Shown piece after piece: positions 4,206 to 32,118 of a DNA stretch of 49,299 bases; the stretch's first letter is position 1, and each line of letters starts with the position of its first letter. Source of the stretch: Anaerolineae bacterium (GTDB lineage Bacteria > Chloroflexota > Anaerolineae > Aggregatilineales > Aggregatilineaceae). A model generated the notes under the pieces. It was not told the origin of the DNA. It made no database searches and saw nothing but the letters and a program-made list of their open reading frames with translations. The translations under genes were made by a program, and so were the position numbers. The DNA lies in NCBI GenBank assembly GCA_034433965.1, contig DAOTZZ010000053.1, positions 1 to 49,299 of the forward strand. Reading direction: 5' to 3'.

Positions 4206-5726
4206 CTAGGCTTCTCCCTGAGGGTGTGTATGACCGTTGCGACGGCGGATGGTGCGGCGCTTGCCATTGCCATTGCCGTTGCCGTTGCTCTGCGACTCCG
4301 TGCCCAGAGCATCGCCCATGTGGAAGCGCCGCCATTTCTGCTCGTCCGCGTTCAGGCGGTGCTGAATGCCATCGCGCCGGTGAATCTCGTCGAAGCCTTC
4401 GGGCTTGATGGCGCTGATGCGCCCATCGAGCAGACCGGCCACGCCCGCCTGTCCCGGTTCCGGATGGTGCGCCGCCTGACGATCCAGGTGATCAATGGCG
4501 TGCGGGTCGTAGTCGAGCGGCTCGTCGTAGACGGTGATGTAGCCCTCGTAGTTGCGCAGCACGACCTTGCCCGGAGCCTGGCTGATCAGGTAGTTAGGCA
4601 TGACGGGGATTTTGCCGCCGCCGCCGGGCGCGTCAATCACATAGGTGGGCACGGCGTAGCCGCTGGTGTGCCCGCGCAGCCCTTCGATGATCTCGATACC
4701 CTTGGCGACCGTGGTGCGGAAGTGTCCCGCGCCCTTGACCAGGTCGCACTGATAGAGGTAGTAGGGGCGCACGCGGTTGCGCACCAGCTTGTGCACCAGC
4801 TCGCGCTGAATATTGACGCTGTCGTTGATGCCCGCCAGCAAGACGCTCTGGTTGCCCAGGGGGATGCCCGCGCGGGACAGTTTGTCCAGCGCCCGGCTGA
4901 GTTCGGGCGTGATCTCCTTGGGATGGTTGACGTGAATGTTCATCCACAAGGGGTGATAGCGCCCCAGCATCTCGGCGAAGTCGTCGGTGATGCGCTGCGG
5001 CAGGAAGACAGGCACGCGGCTGCCAATGCGGATCACCTCGATATGATCAATGGCGCGCAGGCTGGAGAGGATGTATTCCAGCACCTTGGGCGACAGGGTG
5101 AGCGGATCGCCGCCGCTGATCAGCACGTCGCGCACCTGCGGCGTGCGGCGCAGATAGTCGAGTTGCAGTTCGAACTCGGCGCGGCTGAAGTTCGCGCCGG
5201 GGTTGCCGACGATGCGGCTGCGCGTGCAGTAACGGCAGTAGCTGGCGCACTGCGTGGTGACCAGCATCAGCACGCGGTCGGGGTAACGGTGTACCAGGCC
5301 GGGCACCGGGCTGTGCCGGTCTTCGGCCAGGCTGTCTTCCATCATCCCCTCGAAAGCGGCCAGTTCACGCCCCAGCGGGATCACCTGGCGACGGATCGGG
5401 CAGTGCGGATCGTCGGGATCGATCAGGCTGGCGAAGTAGGGCGTGATATCTACCCGAAAGCGATTTTCGGCGGTCAGCCCTTCGATTTCTTCGGGGGTGA
5501 GGTGAATCAGTTGGGCCAGGTCTTCGACGCTGTTCAGGCGGTGCGCCAGTTGCCAGCGCCAGTCGCTCCACTGTTCGTCGGGGACATCGGCCCACAGCGC
5601 CGGTCGCGGGGTGACGGCCAGGACCGGCGCGTTAGCGGGGGGTTCTTCAGCAACGCGCTCCGTATCCGGGCCAGGAGGCTCCTCAAGCTCAGCGGTTTGG
5701 GCATTGTCCAGAGGTTTGATTTCCAT
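4206..5726 (-). CDS. kamA: lysine 2,3-aminomutase (radical SAM, PLP-dependent, KamA/AblA family)
   Basis: Radical-SAM triad CASYCRYC. PLP-Lys context DAPGGGGKIPVMPNY. Long collinear similarity to clostridial KamA as remembered (YYLYQCDL..GHFRT..KGIEIIEGLRGHTSGYAVPTYV). Confidence 0.9.
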   Translation of the reverse strand: MEIKPLDNAQTAELEEPPGPDTERVAEEPPANAPVLAVTPRPALWADVPDEQWSDWRWQLAHRLNSVEDLAQLIHLTPEEIEGLTAENRFRVDITPYFASLIDPDDPHCPIRRQVIPLGRELAAFEGMMEDSLAEDRHSPVPGLVHRYPDRVLMLVTTQCASYCRYCTRSRIVGNPGANFSRAEFELQLDYLRRTPQVRDVLISGGDPLTLSPKVLEYILSSLRAIDHIEVIRIGSRVPVFLPQRITDDFAEMLGRYHPLWMNIHVNHPKEITPELSRALDKLSRAGIPLGNQSVLLAGINDSVNIQRELVHKLVRNRVRPYYLYQCDLVKGAGHFRTTVAKGIEIIEGLRGHTSGYAVPTYVIDAPGGGGKIPVMPNYLISQAPGKVVLRNYEGYITVYDEPLDYDPHAIDHLDRQAAHHPEPGQAGVAGLLDGRISAIKPEGFDEIHRRDGIQHRLNADEQKWRRFHMGDALGTESQSNGNGNGNGKRRTIRRRNGHTHPQGEA

Positions 5727-5962: not shown

Positions 5963-6607
5963 TCAGGGCGAGACGAGCTTGTGTTCGACAGCCAGCGCCA
6001 CCGCCTCGGTGCGGCTGCTGACGCCGAGCTTGGCCAGGATGTTGCTCACGTGCACCTTCACCGTCGAGCGGCTGATGACCAGCCGGTCGGCGATCTCCAC
6101 GTTGTTCAGCCCCTTGACCATCAGCGCCAGCACTTCGCGTTCGCGCTCGGTCAGATCGTGACCCAGGCGCGTCGGCTGAGCGTGCGTGCGGATCAGCGCC
6201 TGCAGGGCTTCCGGGGCCATCGTCGGCTGACCGGCGGCAGCGGCGCGGATGGCGCGGATCAATTCGTCGGATGACACGTTCTTGTACAGGAAGCCCAGCG
6301 CGCCCGCCTGAATCGCTTCCTGTACCAGTTCCTGTTCCTTGAAGCTGGTCAGCGCGATGATCTGCGCCTGCGGGCACAGGCTGCGGATGGCGCGGATGGC
6401 CGCTGGCCCATTCATGCCCGGCATGACCATATCCATCAGCACCACATCCGGGCAGGTTTGCTCGCACAGGCGCACCGCTTCCTCACCGCTGTCCGCTTCT
6501 CCCACATTCTCCAGGTCTTTGTGCACCAGCAGAAAGGCGGCCAGGCCGGTGCGCACCATCTCGTGATCGTCCACGATCAGCACGCGAATCTTGCGCGCTT
6601 CGCTCAT
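5963..6607 (-). CDS. NarL/FixJ-family response regulator (REC + LuxR-type HTH)
   Basis: VLIVDDHEMVR, DVVLMDMVMPGMNG, IIALTS. C-terminal HTH: LTEREREVLALMVKGLNNVEIADRLVISRSTVKVHVSNILAKLG. Its ATG at 6607 overlaps the kinase stop (ATGA). Confidence 0.9.
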   Translation of the reverse strand: MSEARKIRVLIVDDHEMVRTGLAAFLLVHKDLENVGEADSGEEAVRLCEQTCPDVVLMDMVMPGMNGPAAIRAIRSLCPQAQIIALTSFKEQELVQEAIQAGALGFLYKNVSSDELIRAIRAAAAGQPTMAPEALQALIRTHAQPTRLGHDLTEREREVLALMVKGLNNVEIADRLVISRSTVKVHVSNILAKLGVSSRTEAVALAVEHKLVSP

Positions 6608-8148
6608 ATCTCCTCCTGAGTGGGGCTGTGCCACTGCACCGCCACTGACGTGCCCTCGCCGATGCGCGTGTTGAGCGTCAGCGCTGCGCCGATGCTCGCC
6701 GCCCGCTCGCGCATGATGCGCAGCCCAAAGTGATCGGCAGGCACGTTCTGCGGGTCGAAGCCCTGCCCGTCGTCTTCGATGGTCAGGGACACCTGCGCGG
6801 GCGTAGTCACCAGCGCCACGCGCAGGGTGTGAGCACGAGCGTGTTTGACCACATTGCGCAGCGCTTCTTGCGCGATGCGATAGAGCGCCAACTGTATCTC
6901 GGCGGGGTAGACATGCTGTCCCCCGTTGGCGGTGAATTCCACATCCAGCCGCGTGCGCCCGGTGATGGCCTCGACCAGTTGACGCACCAGGTCGCGCAGG
7001 GGGGTCTCGACCAGGGCGGCGGGGCGCAGTTCGAGTAGCAACGTGCGCATCTCGGCCAGCGCACCGCGCGTCAGGCGGCGCAGGTCGGCTACACGCTGCA
7101 TGAACTCGTCCGGGTCTTCTTGCCAGAGTTGCGGCAGCACCTCGGCGATCAGGTTGGCGGAGAACAGAGTCTGCGTGACCGCGTCGTGCAATTCGCGGGC
7201 CAGGCGTTGGCGTTCAGCCATTGTCGCGGCCTGCTCGGCCTGCATACGCAGGCGAGCGTTGGCGATGGCCAGCGCCACCTGATCGCCGAAGGCCACGGCC
7301 AGTTCGATATCTTCCGGCGTCAGGTCGCGCGGCTCGGCGTAGTAGAGCACCAGACTGCCGTAGACCTCATCGCGCATCCACAGCGGCACGGCCAGCACCG
7401 CGCGGTAATGTTCCATGAGCTGCATCAGCAACATTTCGCGGCGCGGATCGCCCAGGCGCTGATAGTCCGGCAGCGCGGCGCGCATATCGGGCATGTAGAC
7501 GGGGCGATGTTCGGACACCGCCCTGCCGATGGCGCCCACGCCCGGCGGCATCTTCATACCGGATACATAGTCGGGGGGTAGCTCGCGCGCCGCTTCCAGT
7601 TCGAGTATTTGCTGATCGTCCTCGTCGCGCAGCCGGAAGATAGCCACGGCACCTGCTTTGAGCAGGCGCTGTGCCTCGACCATGATGTATTCCAGGATTT
7701 CGCCCGCCGGACGCTCGGAGTTGAGTACATCCAGGATGCCGCGCAGCCCCTCGGCGATCAGGCGCTTCTCGTGCTCGTTGCGAATCAGCCGCTCGTATCT
7801 CTGTACCTGCTCGGTGACATCGCGCAGGGTGATTAGCAGATGCGTCTTCCCCGCGTGCACAAACGTCGAGCGGCGCATTTCCACCGAAAGCGTCCCGCCA
7901 TCCTGTCGCCGGAGCGATAGTTCCAGCGCGGGCGCTTCCTGAAGGGCCTGCACCAGGTTCCCGTCCCCGTCAGGCAGCGACAGCAGCGCGTCCAGAGGCT
8001 GCCCGACTATCTCGGCGGGCGACGAGCCGACCAGCCGACCGAGGGCCGGGTTGGCGATCAGCACGCGCCCTTCCTCATTGGCCACCAGGACGCCGTCGGG
8101 TAGCTCGTCGAAGAGATAGTGGTACAGTTCCGCAGTCGCAACCGTCAT
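6604..8148 (-). CDS. PAS/GAF-containing sensor histidine kinase (HisKA_3 / NarX-DegS type)
   Basis: N-terminal PAS-like and GAF-like segments. H-box ARELHDAVTQTLFS, N-box EALRNVVKHARA, G-boxes EDDGQGFD and GLRIMRERA. Confidence 0.9.
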   Translation of the reverse strand: MTVATAELYHYLFDELPDGVLVANEEGRVLIANPALGRLVGSSPAEIVGQPLDALLSLPDGDGNLVQALQEAPALELSLRRQDGGTLSVEMRRSTFVHAGKTHLLITLRDVTEQVQRYERLIRNEHEKRLIAEGLRGILDVLNSERPAGEILEYIMVEAQRLLKAGAVAIFRLRDEDDQQILELEAARELPPDYVSGMKMPPGVGAIGRAVSEHRPVYMPDMRAALPDYQRLGDPRREMLLMQLMEHYRAVLAVPLWMRDEVYGSLVLYYAEPRDLTPEDIELAVAFGDQVALAIANARLRMQAEQAATMAERQRLARELHDAVTQTLFSANLIAEVLPQLWQEDPDEFMQRVADLRRLTRGALAEMRTLLLELRPAALVETPLRDLVRQLVEAITGRTRLDVEFTANGGQHVYPAEIQLALYRIAQEALRNVVKHARAHTLRVALVTTPAQVSLTIEDDGQGFDPQNVPADHFGLRIMRERAASIGAALTLNTRIGEGTSVAVQWHSPTQEEI

Positions 8149-8237
8149 GGGGAAGGCACCTGCGCAGGGTGCGCGGTGATGCAGGCGATACGCCTCTGAT
8201 CATAGCACATTCGCCGGGCAGGGGGATGGGCGCTCAT

Positions 8238-8450
8238 CGCGACGGGTGCGTGCAAATGTGTCAGGCGGTTTGCCGTGATCGGCTGCCCCTCACCCCTCAG
8301 TCCTCTCTCCCTCGCGATCTGCGTCGCGGAGCGAGGGGAAGCGCCTTCCTCGCCCGGACACGCCCCTTTGCCCGCGCGAAAGAAGGGGGCGGGGGATGAG
8401 GGCCATCGGGCGAGGCAAGTCGCTGACAACCTTTGCACGCACTCCATCGC
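8238..8450. repeat. ~210-bp imperfect palindromic GC-rich repeat element (CCCTCACCCC / CTCTCCCTCGCGA core)
   Basis: The left arm GTGCGTGCAAATGTGTCAGGCGGTTTGCC (from 8246) is mirrored by the reverse complement of 8411-8442 (GTGCGTGCAAAGGTTGTCAGCGACTTGCC). The core at 8286-8402 matches the modules of the elements at 40975, 44119 and 49164. Confidence 0.7.
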
Positions 8451-8554
8451 GCACGCGCAGGAGCTCCCATCCCCGGAGCACTGACGCAGCCGGAGATGGG
8501 GACGAGGGCAGCGGGTCACTTGTCGCGCGTGAGGGTGAAGCCGCTCATGAACTG

Positions 8555-9394
8555 CTATTGCAGCAGGATGAAGATGCTCACCGGCGGCAGGCTGACGATC
8601 ACCGTGCCCAGCATCAGCGGCCCAAAGCGCAACGCGCCGCCACCCAGGCGCAGCGCCCCAATGCCCGTCTGCACGGTCTGCATGTCCGGGTCGGACATGA
8701 CCAGGTTCGGCCACAGGTACATGTTCCAGGCATAGATGGTCTGCACCACGGCCAGCGCCCCGATGGTGTTCCAGCTCATGGGCACCAGCACGCGGAACAG
8801 GAATTGCAGCGGGTTGGCCCCGTCGAGTTGAGCCGCTTCGGAGAGTTCCGCCGGTATGCTGGAAAAATGTTGGCGGAACAGGAAGGTGCCTGTCGCGCTG
8901 GCTGTGAAGGGCACGATCAGCGCCCAATAGGTGTTCTGCCAGTGCAGCTTGTTGATGAAGCGGAACAGGGCGATGATCAGCACTTCGGTGGGCATCATCA
9001 GCGTGATGAGCACGAAGCCGAAGACCAGCCATTTGCCCGGAAACCGGAAATAGACGAACGCCAGGCCGGAGAGTAGCGAGAAGATCGTCTTGCCCAGGGT
9101 GATGCCCAGGGTCATGATCACGCTGTTGATCATGTAGGTGTGCAGATGGCGTTCGTAGAAGACTACGTGCCAGTTCTCGTGCAGCCCGCTGCCTGGCGTG
9201 AACTGATAGCGGAAGACTTCTGCGTTGGTCTGCGTGCTGACGATGAGCGCATAGAACAGGGGAATGCCCGACATGAAGCAGGCCGCTATCAGAATGAGGT
9301 GCGCGTACCAGCGCTTGGGCCACCACCTGCGCACCCTCTGCCAGGCTGCGGCTAGCGGTGATACGCGGGTGCTTTCTCGTGAAACAACCGTCAT
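8555..9394 (-). CDS. carbohydrate-type (CUT1) ABC transporter permease
   Basis: Six hydrophobic segments and the EAA-loop motif LSEAAQLDGANPLQF. It directly follows the other permease. Confidence 0.85.
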   Translation of the reverse strand: MTVVSRESTRVSPLAAAWQRVRRWWPKRWYAHLILIAACFMSGIPLFYALIVSTQTNAEVFRYQFTPGSGLHENWHVVFYERHLHTYMINSVIMTLGITLGKTIFSLLSGLAFVYFRFPGKWLVFGFVLITLMMPTEVLIIALFRFINKLHWQNTYWALIVPFTASATGTFLFRQHFSSIPAELSEAAQLDGANPLQFLFRVLVPMSWNTIGALAVVQTIYAWNMYLWPNLVMSDPDMQTVQTGIGALRLGGGALRFGPLMLGTVIVSLPPVSIFILLQ

Positions 9395-9398
9395 GGCC

Positions 9399-10595
9399 TC
9401 ATACTCCGTAGGTGACCTGCCGCCCGCCCGTCCGGAACAGCACCACGGTGATGCCGATCACCGTCAGGAATAGCACGATCGATTCCGCGGCGGCTTTGCC
9501 CATGTCGTTGTTCTGCACGCCAAGCTGAATGACCCGGTACATCATGGTTGTCGTCGAGCGCAGCGGGCCGCCGCCGGGCGTCAAGTAGTCTATGGTGGCA
9601 TACGTCTCGAAGAAAGCATAAGTCAGGTTGGTGACGACCAGGAAGAAGGTGATGGGCGATAGCATCGGCCAGACGATGTGCCAGAACCGCCGCAAGACCC
9701 CCGCGCCGTCAATCGCGCCCGCTTCGATCAGGTCTTTGGGCACATTCTGCAGACCGGCGATGTAGAACAGGATGTTGAAGCCCATAGACTTCCACACGCT
9801 GGCCAGGATGATCGTCCAGGGGGCAACCTGGGGATCGTTGAGCCAGCCCAGCTTGATGCCCAACCATTTGCCCAGCAGGTAGTTGATCAGACCTCCCGAC
9901 GGGTTGAACATCAGCAGGAAGATGATCCCTGCCACGGCGGGAGACATGGCATAGGGCCAGACCAGCAGGATGCGGTAGATGGAAGCGCCGCGCAACGGCA
10001 GATAGGCCATGGTGGCGATCAGCAGCGACAACCCCATGCTCAGCACGACGATGAAGAAGGACATATACATCGTGCGCACAACCGTGTCGAAGTAGGTCTG
10101 GTCTTTCACCAGGCGGGTGAAGTTGTCCACGCAGACGAAAACTTCGCGCCGCGCGCCCAGTCGCGAGAGCATGGTCGAAAGGCGCAGCGTCTCCAATGAG
10201 GGGTAGTACAGGAACAGCAACAGGATGGTCAGGGTTGGCGCGAGCAGGGGCAGGGCAATCCACCAGTGCCGGAAGGCCCCCTGGCTTTGCTGCCCTTCTA
10301 TCAGACTCTCGCGGCGCAGCAACTTGCCGCTGAGCCAGCCGATGGGAGCCACGACGATAGCCGTGCCCGCCGCGGCCAGGATCAGCCCGAAGGCCTGATC
10401 CAGCGATTCGCGACCTGCCTCAAAGGTACAGTAGTCTAGCGGGGCCAGGAACAGGGCCGAGCCAAATGCCCCGGCGATGGCCCCCAGCCCCAGGCCGAGC
10501 AGCCAGAGTCCGCCGGCGCGTTTGAAGATATAGGCCACGACAGCGGCCCCGATCGCTGCGCCCGCCAGCATCAGAACCACAGGAGAAACGACCAT
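9399..10595 (-). CDS. carbohydrate-type (CUT1) ABC transporter permease with ~110-aa N-terminal membrane extension
   Basis: EAA-loop LIEAGAIDGAGVLRRF. The UgpA-like core begins near RHWWIALPLLAP and is preceded by about three additional hydrophobic helices. Confidence 0.85.
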   Translation of the reverse strand: MVVSPVVLMLAGAAIGAAVVAYIFKRAGGLWLLGLGLGAIAGAFGSALFLAPLDYCTFEAGRESLDQAFGLILAAAGTAIVVAPIGWLSGKLLRRESLIEGQQSQGAFRHWWIALPLLAPTLTILLLFLYYPSLETLRLSTMLSRLGARREVFVCVDNFTRLVKDQTYFDTVVRTMYMSFFIVVLSMGLSLLIATMAYLPLRGASIYRILLVWPYAMSPAVAGIIFLLMFNPSGGLINYLLGKWLGIKLGWLNDPQVAPWTIILASVWKSMGFNILFYIAGLQNVPKDLIEAGAIDGAGVLRRFWHIVWPMLSPITFFLVVTNLTYAFFETYATIDYLTPGGGPLRSTTTMMYRVIQLGVQNNDMGKAAAESIVLFLTVIGITVVLFRTGGRQVTYGV

Positions 10596-10702
10596 GATGA
10601 CTTTTTCTCTCTAGGCTTCCTGTTCAGGACTCTTGAGAAAACCCGATTGGGGGGCGACCCCTGCGTCGCCCCCCAGGTGAACAGACCAGTTGCGCCCCAG
10701 GT

Positions 10703-12055
10703 TTACGGCGCGTTCAGCAGGTTGTACTCTTCGATGATGCGATTGGCTTCGGCCACCGCTTCGTCGAGCACCGCCTTGGGGTCGTCGTCGCTCAGCAATA
10801 CACGGTCAATGGCCGCCGTGACCACGTTGCGGATGGCCGGGAAGCCGCCCACCAGCGCGCCGCTGGTCGCCGGCGTGACCTTGCTCTGGGCGAGCTGTTG
10901 CACCGCAACCGTCTGGTTGGGCCACTGCTCGAACCAGCCCTCGGCCTCCAGCAGGTCGTAGGCGCTGTAGCGGATCGGGATGTAGCCGGTGATCTTGTGC
11001 CAGTCCGCCGCGTTCTCGGTGTTGGTCAGGTAGACCAGGAAGGCCAACGCGCCTTCCTCAACCGCCGGGTCGAGGCCGTCGGCCAGCCACAGGGTCGCGC
11101 CGCCGATCAGGTTGCCCGTCCAGCCCGTGTCGTCGTTGTAGGGCAGGAACGAAGCGACAGTCTCGAAGCCGCCCTCGATGCCCATCTGCGTGTAGAGGGT
11201 CGTATCGGAGCTGCTGTAGGCGGCCATGGCAACCTGCTGCGTCGAGTACGCCTGATCCACCGTTGACCAGGAATCGCCGCCCTGCGCGCCGCTGTAGTAC
11301 AGATACCCCTTGTTGTAGAGGTCATCCAGCCACTGCAGGATGGCCACGCCCGCTTCGCTGTTGAAGACAGCTTCCGTCGCGCGGGCCGAACGGCCATTGT
11401 CGTTGTTGACATACAGCGCGTTCTGCTGCGCCAGCCACTGCTCGAAGAACCAGCCATGATTCGGCCAGGTGAAGCAGTATTCTGGCGCGTTCTCCAGGGC
11501 CATGATCGCTTCGCAGGCCTTCTCGACCTCGTCCCAGGTCGCCGGCGGCTTTTCCCAACCGGCAGCCCGCAGGTAATTCATGTTGGAGAACATGATTGCC
11601 GAGGAAGTGTTCCAGGGCATGGAAGTCCACTTGCCATCCAGGGTGTAGTAGGCGCGCACCGGCTCGACGAAGTCGTCGAAGTCAACCGGCAGGCCGAGGA
11701 TTTCGGTGCGGCCGCCCAGCGCATCGGCGATCGGCTTGAACAGGCCGCTGTCGCGGGCATCCTGCGTGCCAGCCTCAAAGAACTGCACGACGGCGGGCAG
11801 TTGGCCCTGCTCTGCGGCGACGGCCACCTGCGCGAAGACGGTCTCGTAGCTGTAGCCGCCGGTGACGACGACCTCATACTGCGGGAACATCTCGTTGAAG
11901 CGGGCGGCGACCTCCTTGGTCCAGTCCCAGCGATAGTCCTGGAAGGCGATCCACACGTCAATCTTGGTCTTTTCCTGCGCGACGCTCGTCGCCCCTGGCG
12001 CGGCCAGCGCCAGCATCATGACCAGCACAACGGATAGAAATACGAGTTTTTTCAT
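10703..12055 (-). CDS. ABC transporter extracellular solute-binding protein (family 1)
   Basis: Signal peptide MKKLVFLSVVLVMMLALAAPGA. About 450 aa with a Trp/Tyr-rich SBP_bac_1-like composition. It sits first in the gene order SBP-permease-permease. Confidence 0.85.
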   Translation of the reverse strand: MKKLVFLSVVLVMMLALAAPGATSVAQEKTKIDVWIAFQDYRWDWTKEVAARFNEMFPQYEVVVTGGYSYETVFAQVAVAAEQGQLPAVVQFFEAGTQDARDSGLFKPIADALGGRTEILGLPVDFDDFVEPVRAYYTLDGKWTSMPWNTSSAIMFSNMNYLRAAGWEKPPATWDEVEKACEAIMALENAPEYCFTWPNHGWFFEQWLAQQNALYVNNDNGRSARATEAVFNSEAGVAILQWLDDLYNKGYLYYSGAQGGDSWSTVDQAYSTQQVAMAAYSSSDTTLYTQMGIEGGFETVASFLPYNDDTGWTGNLIGGATLWLADGLDPAVEEGALAFLVYLTNTENAADWHKITGYIPIRYSAYDLLEAEGWFEQWPNQTVAVQQLAQSKVTPATSGALVGGFPAIRNVVTAAIDRVLLSDDDPKAVLDEAVAEANRIIEEYNLLNAP

Positions 12056-12329
12056 CTCCTCACCTCAATAGACTAAGCGTTGCGGATGGACAGCAGTGCT
12101 CGGAGCACAAAGCGGAACTTTAGACTCTCCACACCAAATCCACCCTAACACAGCGTTAAAAGAACCTGATGTACCTGAAAACCGCTTGAAACTTCTTTAA
12201 TCTGCTCCTGCTACGTCTCCTTTCCTGGGGATTTCGTCAGTAGGGGGACGTTCTGCACGTGAAGGGCCAGACTGCGGCGAACTGATTATCCCCGACCTAC
12301 CGCCATTGTATGCCAAAAAAGTCTCCGTG

Positions 12330-12358
12330 CCAACACAAGCCAACACCCCAGTTGTTGG
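12330..12358. promoter_or_regulatory. candidate operator: tandem CAACAC(A/C) repeats plus an inverted half-site
   Basis: CCAACACAAGCCAACACCCCAGTTGTTGG has two CAACAC units 10 bp apart followed by GTTGTTGG. The same motif architecture occurs upstream of the DeoR gene at 17627..17666. Confidence 0.35.
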
Positions 12359-12398
12359 ATTGCGCACATAGAACGCACGCCCCCCTAACATCGCCTGC

Positions 12399-13163
12399 CT
12401 AGAAGTAATTGACCGTGATGCCGCCGTCCACCACCAGGCTGGCCCCGTTGACCCACGATGCCTCATCCGACGCCAGGTAGAGCGCGGCATAGGCCACGTC
12501 CGGCGGCTGACCAAAACGCCCCATCGGGATACGGCGCAGGCGCAGCATCTTGGCCTCTTCGGTGGCGAAGAGCGTTTCCATCAGCGGTGTGATGATCGGG
12601 CCGGGGCAGATGGCGTTGGAGCGCACTTTCTTGGGGCCGAACTGCACCGCCAGCGAGTGCGTGAGGGCGATTACCGCGCCTTTGCTGGCGGTGTAGGCGT
12701 CCTGCGGCACAGAGCAGCCCACCAATGCCACGAACGACGCGATATTGACCACTGCGCCGCCGCCCGCCTTGATGATCTCCGGAATGCCGTATTTGCAGCA
12801 CAGGGCCACGCCCTGCACGTTGACATCCAGCACGCGCCGCCAGACGTCCGGCTCCATGGTCAGCACGGAAATATCTTCGTCGGGCATAATGCCAGCGTTG
12901 TTGACGAGCGTATCCACCTTGCCGAACTTCGCCACGCCCGCCTTGATGGCCTTCTCGACATCAGCCTCCACCGCCACGTTGCCGGCGACGGCAATCGCCT
13001 GGCCGCCCGCCTGAGCGATCATCTGCGCCGTCTGCTCAACCGTCTGCGCGTTGATGTCGTTGAGCACCAGCCGCGCGCCCTCTTTGGCGAAGAGCAGGGC
13101 CGTCTCGCGGCCCAGGCCGCTGCCCGCGCCAGTGATGAAAGCAACCTTGTTCTCTAGTCGCAT
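12399..13163 (-). CDS. short-chain dehydrogenase/reductase (SDR) family oxidoreductase
   Basis: TGAGSGLGR cofactor motif, NNAG, catalytic YTASK. Start set at ATG 13163, preceded by AAGGAG; the 13223 track start is a TTG codon. Confidence 0.9.
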   Translation of the reverse strand: MRLENKVAFITGAGSGLGRETALLFAKEGARLVLNDINAQTVEQTAQMIAQAGGQAIAVAGNVAVEADVEKAIKAGVAKFGKVDTLVNNAGIMPDEDISVLTMEPDVWRRVLDVNVQGVALCCKYGIPEIIKAGGGAVVNIASFVALVGCSVPQDAYTASKGAVIALTHSLAVQFGPKKVRSNAICPGPIITPLMETLFATEEAKMLRLRRIPMGRFGQPPDVAYAALYLASDEASWVNGASLVVDGGITVNYF

Positions 13164-13219
13164 GGTGTATCTGGCTCCTTCTGTATAAATCTGCGAAAAC
13201 TGCCCAAAGGTGTTGCTCT

Positions 13220-14617
13220 TCAAATCTGCTCGAAGAAACGCGCGCGCTCCCAGCAGGTGACCGCTTCGTCGAACTTGCGCTGCTCGGTGCGCGCGAAGTG
13301 CAGGTAGTGCTCGACCACCTCCTCACCAAAAGCCGCGCGAGCCAGCTCGCTGCCCTCGAAGGCGGCAATCGCTTCGGGCAAGGTGCGGGGTACGCGCGGC
13401 AACTCCGCCGCCAGGTAGGCGTTGCCGGCGAACATGGGCGACGGCTCCGTCTGTCGCTCGATGCCATCTAGCGCCGCCGCCAGCAACGCAGCGAAGGCCA
13501 GGTAGGGGTTGGCGTCAGCGCCAGGGATACGGCATTCGACGCGCAGCGAGTCACCGCGCCCCACCACGCGGAAACCGGTGGTGCGGTTGTCGTAGGCCCA
13601 GGCGATGGCCGTCGGCGCGAACGATTCGGCCTGATAGCGCTTGTAGGAATTGACCGTCGGGGCGAAGAACAGCGCCAACTCGCGGGCGTGCGCCAGCATC
13701 CCGCCCACAGCCCAGCGAAACGTGGCGCTGGCCGTGACGGGCAGCCCCTCGGCCAGGGGGCGGTCTCCGGCAAAGAGATTGCGCGTGCCTCTTTTGTCCC
13801 ACAGGCTGAAGTGCAGGTGCATGCTGCTGCCGGCGTGATGCTCGTCCCACTTGGCCATGAAGGTGATCGCCAGCCCCTGTTGCCAGGCGATCTCGCGGGC
13901 CAGTTGCTTGAAGATGACGGTGCGATCGCCCATGGTCAGCAGGTCGCTGTAGCGGATGTTGATCTCTTCCTGGCCCGCGCCCCATTCGCCTTTGCTGAAC
14001 TCGACCGGCACGCCGGAGAGATGCAGATGCTGACGCATAGCGCCGAGCAGCCCTTCGACCTTGCTGCCCTGAAACAGGTGATAGTCCTCGATATAGGCCC
14101 CGAAGGTTTGTAGATCGTGGTAGTGTTTGGCGCGGGCGGAGTCGTAGGTCTCCTGGAAGACGAAGAATTCCAGCTCGCTCGCGCCCATCGGCAGCAAGTC
14201 CAGCGCCCGCGCCCGCTCGATCTGTCGGCGCAACACCGAGCGCGGCGCGATGCTCACCAGATCGCCGGTCATCTCGTTGCGCACGTCGCACAAGACCAGC
14301 GCCGACCGGTCGAGCCACGACGCGCGACGCAGCGTACTCCAGTCCACCGTCGCCCAGGCATCGCGGTAGCCCTGCTCCCAACTGGCGAAGCGATAGCCGG
14401 GCACCGGGTCCATGGCCAGGTCGCAGGCCAGCAGGTAGTCGCAGAAGTGCAGGCCGTGCTCCGCTGACTCCAGGAAGTAGCGGGCATCGTAGCGCTTGCC
14501 CAGCAGCCGCCCGTACAGGTCGGGGAAGGCTACCAGGACGGTTTCGATTTCCCCGCGCTGTACGGCTTCGGCCAGCGCCGCGCGACTCAGCAGACCGACC
14601 TGCTGCGACTCAGTCAT
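13220..14617 (-). CDS. glutamine synthetase-family ligase (gamma-glutamyl-amine synthetase-like, PuuA/GlnA3-4 type)
   Basis: GS catalytic-domain motifs: FSKGEWGAGQEEINI, MAKWDEHHAGSSMHLHFSLW, NSYKRY, RIPGADANPYLA. Its start overlaps the AOR stop by 8 nt. Confidence 0.85.
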   Translation of the reverse strand: MTESQQVGLLSRAALAEAVQRGEIETVLVAFPDLYGRLLGKRYDARYFLESAEHGLHFCDYLLACDLAMDPVPGYRFASWEQGYRDAWATVDWSTLRRASWLDRSALVLCDVRNEMTGDLVSIAPRSVLRRQIERARALDLLPMGASELEFFVFQETYDSARAKHYHDLQTFGAYIEDYHLFQGSKVEGLLGAMRQHLHLSGVPVEFSKGEWGAGQEEINIRYSDLLTMGDRTVIFKQLAREIAWQQGLAITFMAKWDEHHAGSSMHLHFSLWDKRGTRNLFAGDRPLAEGLPVTASATFRWAVGGMLAHARELALFFAPTVNSYKRYQAESFAPTAIAWAYDNRTTGFRVVGRGDSLRVECRIPGADANPYLAFAALLAAALDGIERQTEPSPMFAGNAYLAAELPRVPRTLPEAIAAFEGSELARAAFGEEVVEHYLHFARTEQRKFDEAVTCWERARFFEQI

Positions 14618-16529
14618 CGCCTGCCCCTTGCGGCGCGGTGCGCACGGCTTCCAGTTCGTCGGCCACCCAGCCGATGCCCAGTTCTTCCAGTTTGGCGCGG
14701 GTGGGCGTGCCGGTCGTCACATCCCAGCCGGCCATGGCGTAGTAGATGTCCTTGGCGCGCTCGAACTCTTCGACCGTCACATACAGGCCATCGCTCTTGC
14801 CGCCGCGCAACGGTTTGGTGAGCTTCTTGGGCAGCGTGTCCTGGTCGCGCCCGAAACCTTCACGGGCGTTGAAGGCGCGCAGCATGTTCAGGCGACGTTC
14901 GCCCAGCTTCTGCAACTCGAACACCGTCACCGACCAGCCTGTCACCGCGCGCACGAAGTCGGCGAGCTGTCGCAGGCTGAAGAGTTGCCAGTCTGGTCCC
15001 CACACGAATTGACACAGGCTGAGCGTATCGAGCGCGCTATAGGTGCACTGCGTGTAGAAGGCATAGCGCACCTTTTCGGCGTTGAGCACAGTGAGCGGCT
15101 GCGGGTTGAGCAGCCCCAGTTCGGCGATGCGCGGGTTGAACTCGGTGTAGCTGCCGTCGTGCTCGCTGGACATGTGATCCGCACCGAAAGGATTGACGCC
15201 GTAGATCAGCGCCAGGCTGCGCTTGACCTGCGGCATATGCGCGGGCATCTCCGATCCCTTGACGGTGATCAGCAAGTCCTCTGCCGCCGGGCCGAAGCGC
15301 CGCGCAGCGATGGCCGAACCGTCGGCCAGCACATCGCCGAACCCCTCGCGGCGGGCGATCATCTCGGTCAGGCGCACCATGGCCTCGGCGTTGCCAAAGC
15401 GCAGCTCCAGGCCGCCGGTGTCGGCCTGCGTGATGATGCCCTGCTCGTAGCAATCCATGGCCCAGGCGATCGTCGCTCCGCAGGTGATGGTGTCCATGCC
15501 GTACATGTTGCATAGCTGATTGGCATAGGCCACGGCCTTCAGGTCGGAAACACCGCAATAGGTGCCGAACGTGCTGAGCGTCTCGTATTCCGGGCCGCCG
15601 TAGATCGGGTTGAGGGGATAGGGGCCATCGTGACTTTCGACCACGCGCTTACAACGCACCGTACAGGCGTAGCACGTATCCGTCTCTTTGAGGATCGTCG
15701 CGCGCATGGTCTCGCCGCTGAGGGAGTCGTAGCCCTCGAAGACGCCGCTGGCGTAGTTGTACGCGGGCAGCCCGCCGCGACTCTGCTGCTTGCGGATAAG
15801 GGCCGTTGTGCCCAGCAAAGTCATGCTGCCCATGATGTCTTCGGTGTTGTCCGCGCCCCATTTGGCCAGCGCCTTGAACGCTTCGCCGTCGAAGACGGAT
15901 GGGCGCTGCCTGCCGCGCACGACGACCGCTTTGAGATTCTTGCTGCCCATCACCGCGCCCATGCCGGTGCGCCCGTTGGCGCGGTTGGACATGTTGATCA
16001 TGGCGGCGAAGCGCACGCCGCGTTCGCCCGCCGGGCCACACTGCAACACCTGCACGCGGCGGTCGCCCAACTCGTCCTCGATGGCGCGCTGCACGTCGTG
16101 GGTCACGCGCCCCCACAGGTGCGAGGCGTCGCGCAATTCGGCCTCACCGTCGTGAATCCACAGGTAGACGGGCCTTTCGGCGCGGCCCCAGATGACGATG
16201 CCATCGAAGCCAGCGAATTTCAGTTCGGCAGGCCAGAAGCCGCCGCACTGCGAATCGCCGACCATGCCGGTGAGCGGCGAGCGCGCGGTTGCGCACATGC
16301 GACTCTGGCCGGAGATAGGCATACCGGTCACCACGCTGTCCATCAGCGCCAGCGTGTTCTCCGGCGCGAGCGGGTCGGTGCCTGGGGGCGTGTTCTTGAG
16401 CAGGTAGTACAGCCCCATGGCGCTGCCCCCCATGTAAGTGCGGTAAAAAATCTCGTCCGGCTCCTCAACGGTCAGGCTGCCGGTGGTCAGGTTGACGTGC
16501 AGAATTTTGCCGTGATACCCGTAAGGCAT
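14610..16529 (-). CDS. aor: aldehyde:ferredoxin oxidoreductase (AOR family, tungsto/molybdopterin + 4Fe-4S)
   Basis: 639 aa. AOR-type N-terminus MPYGYHGKILHVNLTTG. 4Fe-4S cysteine motif CYACTVRC (C-x2-C-x3-C). AAGGAAGGA SD upstream of ATG 16529. Confidence 0.88.
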   Translation of the reverse strand: MPYGYHGKILHVNLTTGSLTVEEPDEIFYRTYMGGSAMGLYYLLKNTPPGTDPLAPENTLALMDSVVTGMPISGQSRMCATARSPLTGMVGDSQCGGFWPAELKFAGFDGIVIWGRAERPVYLWIHDGEAELRDASHLWGRVTHDVQRAIEDELGDRRVQVLQCGPAGERGVRFAAMINMSNRANGRTGMGAVMGSKNLKAVVVRGRQRPSVFDGEAFKALAKWGADNTEDIMGSMTLLGTTALIRKQQSRGGLPAYNYASGVFEGYDSLSGETMRATILKETDTCYACTVRCKRVVESHDGPYPLNPIYGGPEYETLSTFGTYCGVSDLKAVAYANQLCNMYGMDTITCGATIAWAMDCYEQGIITQADTGGLELRFGNAEAMVRLTEMIARREGFGDVLADGSAIAARRFGPAAEDLLITVKGSEMPAHMPQVKRSLALIYGVNPFGADHMSSEHDGSYTEFNPRIAELGLLNPQPLTVLNAEKVRYAFYTQCTYSALDTLSLCQFVWGPDWQLFSLRQLADFVRAVTGWSVTVFELQKLGERRLNMLRAFNAREGFGRDQDTLPKKLTKPLRGGKSDGLYVTVEEFERAKDIYYAMAGWDVTTGTPTRAKLEELGIGWVADELEAVRTAPQGAGDD

Positions 16530-16714
16530 AGCAATCCTTCCTTAAATGAAAAAGGCGAGCGGTGCGGTGAGAGCGCGTGTCTTGAGCTTTCCGTCGTCTC
16601 GCAGAGCGCGGAAGTCTGGCTGGCAAGAGCGGTGAGTAGTATTTTTTGCCCACATGATGTATTTTCGAATCCACACAAATCTTGTTTGATGCTGTTTGAA
16701 AGGAAACAGACCTC

Positions 16715-17581
16715 ATGTATAGAGACCTGCCCCTCGCCATCGCCATCCTGAATGGCTATCCCAGAGCCAGCCGCGAACGCTTCGACGCCGCCGACGTAGG
16801 TCACCCGCACGAGATGTACGCCCGCTTCGTGCGCTCCTACGTCCCCCAGGCTACCCTGGACGTGATCTTCATTGCCGACCTGGATAGCGCCCTGCCCAGC
16901 GGGGCCAACCTGCGCTCCTACGACGCCTACATCTGGACCGGCTCCGATCTGACCATCTATCACACCGACGACCCGCGCGTCACCCGGCAGGTGGAGCTGG
17001 CCCGCGCCATCTACGAGGCAGGCGTGCCCTGCTATGGCAGTTGTTGGGGCATTCAGATGGCCGCCTATGCCGCCGGTGGCGAGGTGCGCAAAAACCCCAG
17101 AGGCCGCGAGTGGGCCATTGCCCGCCGCATCACGCGCACCGAAGCCGGACGGGCGCACCCCTTGCTGCGCGGCAAGCCGGATGTCTACGACGGCTTCATC
17201 ATGCATCTGGACGAAGTCGTCACCCTGCCGCCCGGCGCGACGCTGCTGGCCACCAACGAGCACACCCCCGTGCAGGCGTTGGAAGTCAAACACAAGAACG
17301 GCGTCTTCTGGGCCACGCAATACCATCCGGAGTACAATTTCTTCGAGATGGCCCGCCTGATCCGCGCCCGCGCTGAACCGCTTGTTAAAGAAGGCTTCTT
17401 CGCCACCATCGAGGACGTGCAGGCCTACGCCGAGGCCATGTTCGCTCTGCACGAGCGCCCCGACGATCCGGCGCTGCGCGAGCGTTTTGCCGTCGGGCCG
17501 GACATCCTCGACCCGCTCTACCGCGAGGCCGAGCTGCGCAACTGGTTCGACTATCTGGTCATCCCATCGCGGCGACGCTAG
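16715..17581 (+). CDS. class-I glutamine amidotransferase-like protein (candidate gamma-glutamyl amide hydrolase)
   Basis: Nucleophile elbow CYGSCWGIQM and His-Glu pair in QYHPE. Divergently transcribed from the AOR operon. Confidence 0.8.
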   Translation: MYRDLPLAIAILNGYPRASRERFDAADVGHPHEMYARFVRSYVPQATLDVIFIADLDSALPSGANLRSYDAYIWTGSDLTIYHTDDPRVTRQVELARAIYEAGVPCYGSCWGIQMAAYAAGGEVRKNPRGREWAIARRITRTEAGRAHPLLRGKPDVYDGFIMHLDEVVTLPPGATLLATNEHTPVQALEVKHKNGVFWATQYHPEYNFFEMARLIRARAEPLVKEGFFATIEDVQAYAEAMFALHERPDDPALRERFAVGPDILDPLYREAELRNWFDYLVIPSRRR

Positions 17582-17626: not shown

Positions 17627-17666
17627 TTCAACACAATTCAACACAAAATGCAACTTATTCGTGTTG
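17627..17666 (+). promoter_or_regulatory. candidate DeoR operator: perfect tandem 10-bp repeat TTCAACACAA x2 plus inverted GTGTTG
   Basis: TTCAACACAA at 17627-17636 and again at 17637-17646. GTGTTG at 17661-17666. The site lies in an AT-richer stretch 40-80 nt upstream of the deoR-like ATG. Confidence 0.4.
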
Positions 17667-17705: not shown

Positions 17706-18488
17706 ATGAACGCAATCGAACGTCAGAAGATCATCTTGCAGATCATCGCCGAGCAGGGCGCGGTGACGGTCGCCGAGCTATGTGAGCGCTTCGGCGTCTC
17801 GGATATGACCATCCGGCGCGACCTCTCCACCCTGGAGCGCGCCAGCCTGCTGCGGCGGATTCACGGCGGGGCGGTCAGCGCGCGGGGGCGCAGTTACGAG
17901 CCGCCCGTGTTGACGCGCGTGCACGAAGCCCCCGAAGCCAAGCGCGCCATCGGCAAACTGGCCGCTACGCTGGTGCACGAAGGCGACAGTATCGCCCTGG
18001 ACATCGGCACGACGACGCTGGAACTGGCCCGCAACCTCACCCGCCTGCAAGACATCACCGTGCTGACCAACAGCCTGCCCATCGCCAACCTGCTCACCGA
18101 TCAGCCCGGCATTCGTCTGATGCTGTGCGGCGGGATCGTGCGCCCTGGCGAGCGCTCGCTGATCGGGCCAGTGGCGGAGTACACTTTCAGTCAGTTCTAT
18201 GTGGACAAGGCGTTCATTGGCATCGGCGGGGTAGACCTGGAAGCGGGCCTGACCGAGTACAATACCGACGACGCCGAAGTCAAACGGCACATGATCCACA
18301 ATGCGCAGCGCTGCATCTTGCTGACCGACAGCCGCAAGTTCGGGCTGAAGACGTTCGCCAGCGTCGCGCCGCTGTCGGTGGTGGACGATATTGTCACCGA
18401 CGATGGTCTGAAACCGGAGTTTCGCGAAGCCCTGGAGCGAGAGGGGATCGTCGTGCATATCGCCTCTGTCGCCCGCAATGCGCCCTAG
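17706..18488 (+). CDS. DeoR-family transcriptional regulator
   Basis: N-terminal HTH VTVAELCERFGVSDMTIRRDLSTLE, followed by a DeoR C-terminal sensor-like domain. Confidence 0.9.
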   Translation: MNAIERQKIILQIIAEQGAVTVAELCERFGVSDMTIRRDLSTLERASLLRRIHGGAVSARGRSYEPPVLTRVHEAPEAKRAIGKLAATLVHEGDSIALDIGTTTLELARNLTRLQDITVLTNSLPIANLLTDQPGIRLMLCGGIVRPGERSLIGPVAEYTFSQFYVDKAFIGIGGVDLEAGLTEYNTDDAEVKRHMIHNAQRCILLTDSRKFGLKTFASVAPLSVVDDIVTDDGLKPEFREALEREGIVVHIASVARNAP

Positions 18489-18520: not shown

Positions 18521-19327
18521 ATGATCAGCAAAACCCTTTTAGTCATCTTCGACGGTTGCCGGCCCGATGCCCTGGCGCTGGCCCACACACCACATGTTGA
18601 CCGGCTCTGGCAGCAGGGAGCTTATACCTGGGATGCGCAATCAGTCGTGCCCAGCTACACCCTGCCCGCCCACATGTCCATGTTCCGCGGTGTGACGCCC
18701 GAACGGCACGGCGTGACCGACAACAACTTTCAGCCTTCGGCAGTGGACTTCCCCAGCTTCGTTGACATCGCGCATCAGCACCGACGGCAGACGGCCATGT
18801 TTTACAGTTGGGAGCAACTGCGCGACCTGTCGGCGCACGGCAGCCTGACCGTCAGCTATTGCCGCGACGGGGCTGTGACGCCGGACGCCGATCAGATCGT
18901 CGCCGCCCAGGCCGCCGATCTGCTGATCCGCGAGCGCCCCGATCTGGTGGTGGTGTACCTGGCCGAGTCCGACCTGGTGGGGCACGCCGCTGGTTGGATG
19001 TCGGCGGCTTATCTGCAGGCCATCGAGCGCATGGATCAGGCGTTGGGGCTGCTGCTGGCGACGCTCGACGAGGCCAATTTGCGCGACGAGTACACGGTGA
19101 TCTTTCTCTCCGATCACGGCGGACACGAACATACACATGGCACCGCTTCGCCCGAAGACCTGACCATCCCCTGGATCATCAGCGGCCCGGCGATCAAAGC
19201 GGGGCACGCTCTGACGACGCCAGTGCGCATCTACGACACCGCCGCCACCATCGCCCACCTGCTGGGCGTCCCCCGCCCCGACGTGTGGGAAGGGCAACCC
19301 ATCTGGGAGGCATTCGACCGTGACTAG
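18521..19327 (+). CDS. alkaline-phosphatase-superfamily phosphodiesterase/pyrophosphatase-like enzyme (short type)
   Basis: ORF 18125..19327 trimmed to ATG 18521 (MISKTLLVIFDGCRPD). Metal-ligand and nucleophile motifs: DGCRPD, PSYTLPAH, DLVGHAAG, SDHGGHEHTHG. Confidence 0.75.
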   Translation: MISKTLLVIFDGCRPDALALAHTPHVDRLWQQGAYTWDAQSVVPSYTLPAHMSMFRGVTPERHGVTDNNFQPSAVDFPSFVDIAHQHRRQTAMFYSWEQLRDLSAHGSLTVSYCRDGAVTPDADQIVAAQAADLLIRERPDLVVVYLAESDLVGHAAGWMSAAYLQAIERMDQALGLLLATLDEANLRDEYTVIFLSDHGGHEHTHGTASPEDLTIPWIISGPAIKAGHALTTPVRIYDTAATIAHLLGVPRPDVWEGQPIWEAFDRD

Positions 19328-20585
19328 GCTCCTGGCGTGGCGGCAACGGCTGCCCGCCGAACAAGCCCTGCTGATCATCGGCCTGGGTGTGGCGGTGTCG
19401 CTGCTGGGCGATCTGACGCTCTATGTGGTGTTGCCCACCCATACTGAAGACGCGGGGATTGCCCTGGCGAACGTCGGCCTGATGCTCTCCGCCAACCGCT
19501 TGATTCGCATCGTCCTCAACGGGCCGCTGGGCGTGCTGATCGAGCGTATTCCCCGGCGGCGCATCGCTGTCCCGGCGCTGTTCTGCGGCGCGCTCTCGTC
19601 GCTGCTCTACACTGTGCCGGGCTTCTGGCCGCTGTTGATCGGGCGGCTGTTATGGGGCATTTCGTGGGCGGGCATCTGGCTCAGCGCCAGCACCATGGCG
19701 CTCGATCTCTCCACCTTCGCCAATCGGGGACGTTTCGTCGGGCGTCTGCAGATGTGGTTCTTTATCGGCTCAGGGGGCGCGTCGCTGGCCGGAGGAGTGC
19801 TCACCGACTGGTTGGGCTACAGCGCGGCGCTGCGCGTCTGCTCGCTGATCGCGCTGGCAGCGGCGGTCGGCTGGTGGTTAGCGCTGCCGGAGACCCAACC
19901 GGCGCGTACCCCCGCCAGGGCTAGCGGCTCCCAGACCCTGCCGGGCACACCTGTGCCTCCGCCCAACAGGCTGTTGCCGCTGGCGATGGCCATCGCCTTG
20001 CTGGGCGTCAACTGGCTGATCTTCATCGGCATTCTCGGCGCGGTGTTGCCCTTGCTGCTCGAAGAGCGCATCGGCGAGACTGTGCAGATAGCCGGGACGA
20101 TCATCTACCTGTCCACCTTCACCGGCGCGATGGCCGCCGCCAGCCAGGTGCTCAGTCTGGTGGCGTCGCCCCTGGCGGGGTGGCTTTCTGACCTCAGTGG
20201 CGATCGCTGGCGATTGGTGATCGGCGCGCTGATCCTGGGCGTGGCTGCCATGGCGCTCACGGCAGGCGGGACGGGCGCAGTGGTCGTGACAGCGATCATG
20301 CTCGGCGCGATCGCCACCAGTGTGCTGCAAACACAGGTGATGACGCTGGTCGGCGACTATGGCGGGGATAACAATCGGGGGCGCATCCTGGGCATCATCA
20401 ATACGGTGGGCGACGTAGGCAGCGCCGCCGGCCCGTTGATCGCCTATGCGCTGCTGCCGCTGGTACATATCGGCGGGTTGTTCTGGCTGGCAACCGCTAT
20501 CCTGGGCGCAGCCCTGCCCGGCGCCTGGTGGGTTGCCCGGCAGGAAGCGCAGCGCCTGCGCCCGGCCCATACGCCGCCGGTGTAG
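19320..20585 (+). CDS. MFS transporter
   Basis: About 12 hydrophobic segments with an MFS loop motif (ERIPRRR). The GTG start overlaps the upstream stop by 8 nt. Confidence 0.85.
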   Translation: MTRLLAWRQRLPAEQALLIIGLGVAVSLLGDLTLYVVLPTHTEDAGIALANVGLMLSANRLIRIVLNGPLGVLIERIPRRRIAVPALFCGALSSLLYTVPGFWPLLIGRLLWGISWAGIWLSASTMALDLSTFANRGRFVGRLQMWFFIGSGGASLAGGVLTDWLGYSAALRVCSLIALAAAVGWWLALPETQPARTPARASGSQTLPGTPVPPPNRLLPLAMAIALLGVNWLIFIGILGAVLPLLLEERIGETVQIAGTIIYLSTFTGAMAAASQVLSLVASPLAGWLSDLSGDRWRLVIGALILGVAAMALTAGGTGAVVVTAIMLGAIATSVLQTQVMTLVGDYGGDNNRGRILGIINTVGDVGSAAGPLIAYALLPLVHIGGLFWLATAILGAALPGAWWVARQEAQRLRPAHTPPV

Positions 20586-31271: not shown

Positions 31272-31290
31272 AATTGCTCCGTCCCCCCGC

Positions 31291-32115: not shown

Positions 32116-32118
32116 GCG

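Follow-up and report, generated by a model that had tools for sequence, protein, structure and literature searches.

The window, by which we mean the whole 49,299-nt stretch of DNA that was analysed (contig DAOTZZ010000053.1 of an Anaerolineae bacterium), contains a conserved locus of ten genes in which a glutamine synthetase (GS)-like ligase is combined with an aldehyde oxidoreductase of the AOR family. The source is a metagenome-assembled genome (MAG) of 4.07 Mb in 393 contigs, which is 91.6% complete. Genes were called with a list of open reading frames (ORFs) and with Pfam and NCBIfam scans (Table 1). The ten genes form two divergent arms. The minus-strand arm consists of the AOR, the ligase, a short-chain dehydrogenase/reductase (SDR), a UgpB-like binding protein of the ATP-binding cassette (ABC) type and two permeases. 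The plus-strand arm consists of a class-I amidotransferase-like hydrolase, a DeoR regulator, an NPP-type phosphodiesterase and a transporter of the major facilitator superfamily (MFS). The first-pass annotation had described a locus of seven genes. All seven were found in place and on the strands it had assigned, but the locus extends further: in relatives, the genes for DeoR, the phosphodiesterase and the MFS transporter follow the amidotransferase-like gene in identical order.

Table 1. Genes and candidate operators of the locus, with their positions in the window
Feature	Position	Strand	Matches and remarks
AOR-family aldehyde oxidoreductase (W/Mo-pterin, [4Fe-4S], predicted), 639 aa	14610-16529	-	AFOR_N 244 bits, AFOR_C 400 bits
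GS-like ligase, predicted gamma-glutamyl-amine ligase, 465 aa	13220-14617	-	Gln-synt_C 314 bits
SDR, ~254 aa from ATG 13163 (ORF 12399-13223)	12399-13163	-	adh_short_C2
UgpB-like ABC substrate-binding protein, CUT1 type	10703-12055	-	SBP_bac_8; NF008211 193 bits, cut-off 411
ABC permease, UgpA-like	9399-10595	-	BPD_transp_1; NF007852 238 bits, cut-off 335; synteny kept
ABC permease, UgpE-like	8555-9394	-	BPD_transp_1; NF008210 188 bits, cut-off 297; synteny kept
Class-I glutamine-amidotransferase-like protein, 288 aa	16715-17581	+	GATase 53 bits, Peptidase_C26 33 bits
DeoR/GlpR-family regulator	17706-18488	+	HTH_DeoR and DeoRC; adjoins hydrolase gene in relatives, 76-97% identity
Short NPP-type (alkaline-phosphatase superfamily) phosphodiesterase, 268 aa	18521-19327	+	Phosphodiest PF01663 117 bits; synteny kept
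MFS transporter	19320-20585	+	MFS_1; synteny kept; no informative NCBIfam match
CAACAC-N4-CAACAC direct repeat, candidate operator, upstream of binding-protein gene	12331-12346	+	exact match
Second CAACAC-N4-CAACAC repeat, candidate autoregulatory operator, upstream of deoR	17629-17644	+	exact match

The 8-nt overlap previously noted between the AOR and ligase genes is real, with the AOR stop and the ligase start at 14610-14617. In 11 of 12 distinct loci of relatives, the corresponding start-stop spacing ranges from -13 to +12 nt. As start of the SDR, the ATG at 13163, which lies behind AAGGAG, is the likeliest and not the TTG at 13223; the gene thus begins 56 nt past the ligase stop. In most loci compared, an SDR gene directly follows the ligase gene.

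To place the locus among related genomes, the family and the order were compared by GTDB groups, the family comprising 42 genomes including that of the window. The ligase is encoded in all eight other genomes of the genus and in 16 of the 41 other genomes of the family. Fifteen of the other family genomes have a ligase that is 71-92% identical to that of the window, and in 14 of them the AOR gene lies directly upstream of the ligase gene on the same strand. This arrangement is far beyond chance, and the association of AOR, ligase and hydrolase on which the first-pass annotation had relied is conserved in related genomes. Near-identical DNA was found in metagenomes from sediment, microbial mats and hot springs, and the mat contigs (X2) show the same arrangement.

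The GS-like protein scored below the cut-offs of all NCBIfam equivalog models: 234 bits versus 470 for the Type III/GmaS-like model, 228 versus 429 for Type I GS (TIGR00653) and 186 versus 650 for PuuA (NF045547). Among solved structures it matched 11zs with 451 bits and 5dm3 with 396 bits, the latter presumably being Csal_0679 of Chromohalobacter salexigens; any true GS, GmaS or other entry reached at most 151 bits. With the ligase of an operon on a plasmid of Paracoccus denitrificans PD1222 it shares 48% identity. The ligands for metal, ATP and glutamate are kept (E129, E131, E212, E220, H269, H271, R321, R339, R344, E357 and R359; E. coli numbering). At the ammonium site, in contrast, D50 is replaced by A, S53 by P and E327 by F, and similar losses are seen in PuuA and in the Paracoccus operon ligase. 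The two other GS paralogues of the genome retain D50 and E327, while S53 is present in one of the two.

A tree of 91 rows, computed without the sequences of GlnA2-4, IpuC and Csal_0679, placed the ligase in a clade (SH-aLRT 97) with the ligases of the Paracoccus plasmid operon, of T. roseum and of a Streptomyces viridifaciens cluster. E. coli GlnA, E. coli PuuA and the GS paralogues of the genome itself fell outside this clade. The Gln-synt_C domain and the name "glutamine synthetase" given to database homologues could suggest an ordinary GS for ammonium assimilation with unrelated neighbours. We consider this highly improbable, because the score for Type I GS is far below its cut-off, the ammonium-site residues are gone although the two paralogues of the same genome hold them, the protein lies outside the GS clade, and its neighbourhood is conserved across phyla. 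Tree placement and residue losses also bear out the earlier expectation that the protein does not group with true glutamine synthetases. Judged by its sequence, it is not a GS but a gamma-glutamyl-amine ligase of the ethanolamine type.

Sister families of the order have ligases that are 56-60% identical to that of the window; there, the slot upstream of the ligase that holds the AOR in the window's family is occupied by an aldehyde dehydrogenase (ALDH). This ALDH is 54-55% identical to that of the Paracoccus operon and 65-67% identical to that of a cluster in A. silvanus, and therefore represents the dedicated dehydrogenase type of the pathway. Among the 42 family genomes it occurs only in G524 and G401. 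In G524 it adjoins the ligase, and this genome has no AOR orthologue. G401 is the sole member of the genus with an AOR-free cluster; the hydrolase and ligase genes are separated by a gap of 225 bp containing no AOR remnant, and no AOR orthologue was found anywhere in this 98% complete genome (best match 37% identical). The ALDH of G401 (L147:5992-7416, contig C44) stands alone beside uvrA, unlinked to the ligase cluster, and is 73% identical to the ALDH of locus L115. The genome of the window encodes five full-length ALDHs, which are at most 32% identical to the displaced ALDH; no orthologue of the latter was found.

Thus, among the 42 family genomes, AOR and dedicated ALDH are mutually exclusive, both in position and in genome. 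We read this as a non-orthologous displacement of the dedicated ALDH by the AOR. The first-pass annotation had suspected that an AOR stands in for the usual NAD(P)-dependent enzyme, and this idea is strengthened by the shared slot in sister families, by the ethanolamine-operon type of the ALDH found there and by the complementary presence and absence within the family. It had also held that such a substitution is undescribed. In the searchable literature we found no paper that links gamma-glutamyl or ethanolamine metabolism to AOR or to tungsten, which agrees with this claim but is no proof that none exists. The sister genome G401, which uses an ordinary dehydrogenase instead, provides a natural control.

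Outside the family, L049 from a more distant Anaerolineae MAG encodes an AOR 62% identical to that of the window, in the one-strand order AOR, hydrolase, binding protein, two permeases, a glycerophosphodiester phosphodiesterase (GDPD), ligase and SDR. A sample of 400 Chloroflexota genomes contained no case of AOR/ligase adjacency besides that of the window; because this sample missed the window's family, it shows only that the arrangement is not widespread. A different constellation was seen in a Chloroflexota MAG (L079:9965-16972), where the ligase is followed by an inserted DUF6036-like gene, an SDR, a 733-aa AOR-family protein of another subfamily and a Fer4/CCG protein. This AOR-family protein is 27% identical to the AOR of the window and 72% identical to a paralogue on contig C230 of the window's genome. 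The Fer4/CCG protein could be its electron acceptor, and L079 may represent a further independent recruitment of an AOR, albeit as a single case.

The AOR of the window scored 383 bits with the solved structure 9mqx, 377 with 1aor, 319-336 with 9g7j and 8c0z, 282 with formaldehyde ferredoxin oxidoreductase (FOR) and about 208 with BamB and WOR5; we assign it to the AORs in the strict sense. The CxxCxxxC motif with its distal cysteine (Cys286/289/293/506), Glu314 and His452 are invariant in 33 sequences and align with the corresponding residues of 1aor. The Pyrococcus furiosus enzyme 1aor, like 9mqx, 9g7j and 8c0z, shares with it the AFOR domains, the Cys motif and the catalytic Glu and His. 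In contrast to 1aor and the other solved AORs, which are regarded as broad-range enzymes and have no dedicated operon partner, the AOR of the window is translationally coupled to one particular catabolic ligase and belongs to an organism with a caa3 oxidase.

Within the family, the AORs linked to the ligase fall into a single clade (SH-aLRT 100). The sequences closest to them, 55-61% identical, come from ligase-free genomes of the same class, which argues for recruitment from a resident Chloroflexota AOR lineage. Three further AOR-family paralogues, 29-38% identical to the cluster AOR, are encoded in the genome (contigs C392, C93 and C230), as are MoeA, in three copies, and MoaC; a search with PF13531 gave no clear call of a tungstate or molybdate transporter. 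Between the linked AOR clade and the ten nearest unlinked AORs, 24 alignment columns differ. L049 shares five of these, and none of the three strongest, so that the columns yield no usable signature of specificity.

The AOR could alternatively be a broad-range scavenger of free toxic aldehydes such as aminoacetaldehyde, glycolaldehyde or acetaldehyde, while the gamma-glutamyl aldehyde is oxidised by an unlinked dehydrogenase. AORs are typically promiscuous, no residues set the linked clade apart from its unlinked relatives, and the genome has five other ALDHs as well as the AOR paralogues. Yet the AOR sits in the exact slot of the dedicated ALDH and overlaps the start codon of the ligase, and the dedicated ALDH type is missing from all AOR-bearing genomes of the family but is present in the AOR-free genus member G401. 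A scavenger role is therefore unlikely in our view. The opposite proposal is that the AOR acts as a dedicated gamma-glutamyl-aminoacetaldehyde:ferredoxin oxidoreductase, which was repeatedly recruited under selection in tungsten-rich thermal waters and provides a route free of NAD(P). This more far-reaching version is put forward tentatively; it seems quite possible to us but falls somewhat short of being probable.

The SDR is 48% identical to the SDR of an ALDH-type cluster in Binatia. The triad Cys110-His204-Glu206 of the hydrolase is invariant in 16 orthologues. In L022, L025 and L040 the hydrolase gene directly follows the ligase gene, the slot that elsewhere is taken by a C26 hydrolase; the hydrolase is 27% identical over 177 residues to the C26/PuuD-like protein of the ALDH-type clusters. 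The protein that the first-pass annotation had proposed as gamma-glutamyl amide hydrolase is of the class-I amidotransferase type; it is not a PuuD orthologue but GuaA-like. No match to the FGase of Paracoccus was detected within the window. Taken together, the replacements of SDR, AOR and hydrolase indicate that enzymatic steps of the pathway are filled by unrelated families in different lineages.

Which amine enters the pathway? The plasmid operon of P. denitrificans PD1222 has the order RpiR, FGase, three TRAP transporter genes, ligase, ALDH and iron-containing alcohol dehydrogenase. The ethanolamine operons of Phaeobacter and C. salexigens have the same gene order (PMC10132767). Because of this gene-for-gene match, the Paracoccus operon is of the ethanolamine type (PMC10132767; review PMC9397018). 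The route described there leads from ethanolamine via gamma-glutamylethanolamide, gamma-glutamylacetaldehyde amide and gamma-glutamylglycine to glutamate and glycine (PMC10132767, PMC9397018), and the same scheme has been proposed for GlnA4 of S. coelicolor (PMC6529630). The logic of the pathway itself is thus already published.

Three kinds of ethanolamine transporter occur as neighbours of ligase orthologues. Orthologues that are 58-66% identical to the ligase repeatedly lie beside such transporters. In T. roseum the order is ligase, SDR and eat, and the permease passes the ethanolamine permease model TIGR00908 (436 bits, cut-off 381.75). An Eat homologue, 62-74% identical, adjoins the ligase in seven further loci, from five cyanobacteria, a Deferribacteres MAG and a Roseiflexaceae MAG. 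In locus L087 it is a TRAP binding protein, EtoX-like with 63% identity, that adjoins the ligase. In this genome, which is 91.6% complete, EutB was looked for but not found.

Another primary amino alcohol or amine could enter by the same chemistry, for example alaninol, 3-aminopropanol, serinol or the head group of an unusual thermophile lipid. In support of this, a 68%-identical homologue bears the name "Glutamate--isopropylamine ligase" in one source, the window holds a UgpB-like ABC system and an MFS transporter and not eat or EtoX, and such ligases often take several amines (PMC13740247). The name given by that one source is the only link to the Ipu pathway. Points against another amine are the absence from the locus of a gene for an Ipu-type monooxygenase acting on gamma-glutamyl-isopropylamide, the repeated neighbourhood of eat or EtoX transporters and ligase orthologues, the displaced ALDH, which is of the type found in the ethanolamine operon, and the fact that ethanolamine is the common primary-amine alcohol from glycerophosphodiesters. 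We therefore regard a different amine as a rather improbable substrate. Of the amino-alcohol or polyamine gamma-glutamylation logic proposed in the first-pass annotation, the general scheme is supported by the ligase and by synteny, while the range of substrates is narrowed to ethanolamine as the likeliest one. More precisely, ethanolamine that is set free from glycerophosphodiesters is the most likely substrate.

The closest solved structure to the binding protein is E. coli UgpB (4aq4, 161 bits). The predicted ABC system is Ugp-like but does not pass as a Ugp importer: the binding protein and both permeases missed the UgpB, UgpA and UgpE equivalog cut-offs (Table 1), and neither a UgpC gene nor any other ABC ATPase gene lies within the locus. 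Relative to UgpA, the UgpA-like permease is longer by about 100 residues at its N-terminus, so that the match begins at residue 104; its counterpart in L006 has 578 aa. In L022, L040, L049, L068 and L077 the ligase has a GDPD gene directly beside it, and in L006 and L020 such a gene lies at the edge of the cluster. UgpB of M. tuberculosis binds glycerophosphoethanolamine (10.1101/529602). The structural likeness to UgpB, the GDPD genes beside the ligase and the binding by the M. tuberculosis protein together suggest uptake of glycerophosphodiesters, release of ethanolamine and its catabolism through gamma-glutamyl intermediates. For the NPP-type phosphodiesterase of the locus, the nearest solved relatives are ENPP enzymes.

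A probable mechanism is the following. The UgpB-like ABC system would import a diester, most likely glycerophosphoethanolamine. A phosphodiesterase, either the NPP-type enzyme of the locus or a GDPD enzyme as encoded in the cluster of several relatives, would free ethanolamine, and the GS-like ligase would join it to the gamma-carboxyl group of glutamate in an ATP-driven reaction. The SDR would then convert gamma-glutamylethanolamide to gamma-glutamyl-aminoacetaldehyde. From this the AOR would form gamma-glutamylglycine and pass the electrons to a ferredoxin encoded elsewhere; the versions of the pathway described so far all use an NAD(P)-dependent ALDH here. The class-I amidotransferase-like hydrolase would release glutamate and glycine from gamma-glutamylglycine. 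Regulation by DeoR probably extends at least to its own gene and the transporter operon. The sequences show which genes are present, their orthology and synteny, that the catalytic residues are intact and that AOR and dedicated ALDH have complementary distributions; we infer every substrate, the metal (tungsten or molybdenum), the electron acceptor and the regulation. As a whole, the mechanism appears fairly probable to us, with more weight on the type of pathway and on ethanolamine and less on head-group release and on the specificity of the AOR.

Several points weigh against this mechanism. The window contains no ethanolamine-specific transporter, and neither a ferredoxin gene nor another AOR partner gene lies within the locus. 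Head-group release is the weakest link, because the cluster holds only the NPP-type phosphodiesterase and the two GDPD genes of the genome are on other contigs. The linked AOR could be a broad-range enzyme, since it shows no clear specialised residues compared with its unlinked relatives. A single common transcript of the transporter genes and the AOR-ligase-SDR genes is unlikely, because the gap of 343 bp between them carries its own promoter-like site. AORs are in general oxygen-sensitive, but the organism has a caa3-type oxidase, which the first pass had also reported and which is encoded at 30681-34854 (COX4_pro, COX3, COX1 and a COX2 with a C-terminal cytochrome c domain). The contrast between AOR and ALDH within the genus amounts to one switch event (G401), and absences are not proven because the genome is an incomplete MAG.

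The closest described system is the pathway of C. salexigens, Phaeobacter sp. MED193 and Paracoccus, with ETAGA, GETADH, GAADDH, GGAH and the TRAP transporter EtoVWX (PMC10132767, citing Vetting et al.). It has the same four-step logic and a ligase homologous to that of the window, as the values for Paracoccus and 5dm3 indicate, and its ALDH belongs to the subfamily that was displaced. In the window, the iron-containing alcohol dehydrogenase (PF00465) of that pathway is replaced by the SDR, which is analogous and not homologous. Likewise, the AOR takes the place of the ALDH (PF00171), which is missing from the locus, the class-I amidotransferase-like hydrolase that of the FGase-family hydrolase (PF05013), and the UgpB-like ABC system that of the TRAP transporter.

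In the GlnA4 cluster of S. coelicolor (SCO1610-1615), which we compared by its description only, a GS-like gamma-glutamylethanolamide synthetase starts the route; the later steps are predicted to be the same, with glycine and glutamate as products (PMC6529630). This cluster has an ALDH (SCO1612) and an FGase-family hydrolase (SCO1615), and only the GlnA4 step has been demonstrated (PMC6529630). The Puu pathway of E. coli (PuuA, PuuB, PuuC and PuuD) shares the tagging with glutamate, the oxidation to the aldehyde and then the acid, and hydrolysis by an enzyme of the class-I amidotransferase fold. It differs in that PuuA belongs to a distant branch, the substrate is a diamine and the first oxidation is carried out by a flavin oxidase.

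Clusters of an SDR/C26/ALDH type occur in Binatia, bacterium HR30, cyanobacteria, Acidobacteriota, A. silvanus and Streptomyces viridifaciens. Their order is the same, with ligases 57-68% identical (uncultured bacteria and A. silvanus) and SDRs 48-55% identical to those of the window. They use an NAD(P)-dependent ALDH and a PuuD-like C26 hydrolase, the latter absent in A. silvanus and a few others, whereas the window has an AOR and a GuaA-like hydrolase. This SDR/C26 variant is widespread and uncharacterised. Two cultured thermophiles carry ethanolamine clusters of the SDR type on megaplasmids: T. roseum with ligase, SDR and eat (L092:8992-12743), and A. silvanus, on pMESIL01, with permease, aminotransferase, ligase, SDR and ALDH (L093:5919-12540).

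Only a minority of bacterial AOR-family enzymes have a known physiological substrate; here one AOR clade is given a specific putative reaction and a pathway. The comparison also illustrates how modular the pathway is: alcohol dehydrogenase, aldehyde oxidation, hydrolase and uptake have each been swapped between unrelated families. It extends the route to thermophilic Chloroflexi and ties it, through the suggested uptake of glycerophosphodiesters, to the recycling of membrane lipids in mats. If the proposal of a dedicated oxidoreductase is true, the AOR would be the first member of its family to act physiologically on an N-acylated amino-aldehyde, and the reaction would be the first tungsten- or molybdenum-pterin step in the recycling of phospholipid head-group nitrogen. 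Chloroflexi of hot-spring mats would then run the ethanolamine route without NAD(P), with low-potential electrons going to ferredoxin in anoxic periods. The repeated recruitment of AORs (in the window's family, in L049 and perhaps in L079) would reflect selection in tungsten-rich thermal waters.

Exact CAACAC-N4-CAACAC repeats occur only twice in the window. The first overlaps the -35 element of a promoter-like site on the minus strand (12333-12305), and each repeat is followed by an inverted GTGTTGG- or GTTGTTGG-like copy. Their positions, one before the binding-protein gene and one before deoR, suggest that DeoR controls the transporter and its own gene through these candidate operators. Among relatives the repeat is kept only in the closest one, and there only upstream of the binding-protein gene; the divergent promoter region between the AOR and hydrolase genes contains no such site.

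In two RNA libraries from mats, assembled contigs with about 95-97% identity were found on the binding-protein gene (10703-12022). Single contigs of 151-155 nt from mat metatranscriptomes map to the AOR (X23) and to the hydrolase gene (X24); for the ligase and the SDR, no contig was found in two assembled mat metatranscriptomes. Pieces of the binding-protein, AOR and hydrolase genes thus occur in mat RNA libraries, which is a weak hint at most, given that carry-over of DNA is possible, and neither shows nor refutes co-expression.

Some features lie in or next to the transporter end of the locus. A 393-aa ORF at 8145-9326, which runs across a permease gene in another frame, is spurious. Just downstream of the permeases, genes for a PAS-GAF histidine kinase and a NarL-type response regulator are located at 5963-8148. 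These two-component genes are probably unrelated to the cluster, because they are absent beside it in L006. Upstream of them, at 4206-5726, lies a lysine-2,3-aminomutase-like radical SAM gene with LAM_C and Radical_SAM domains.

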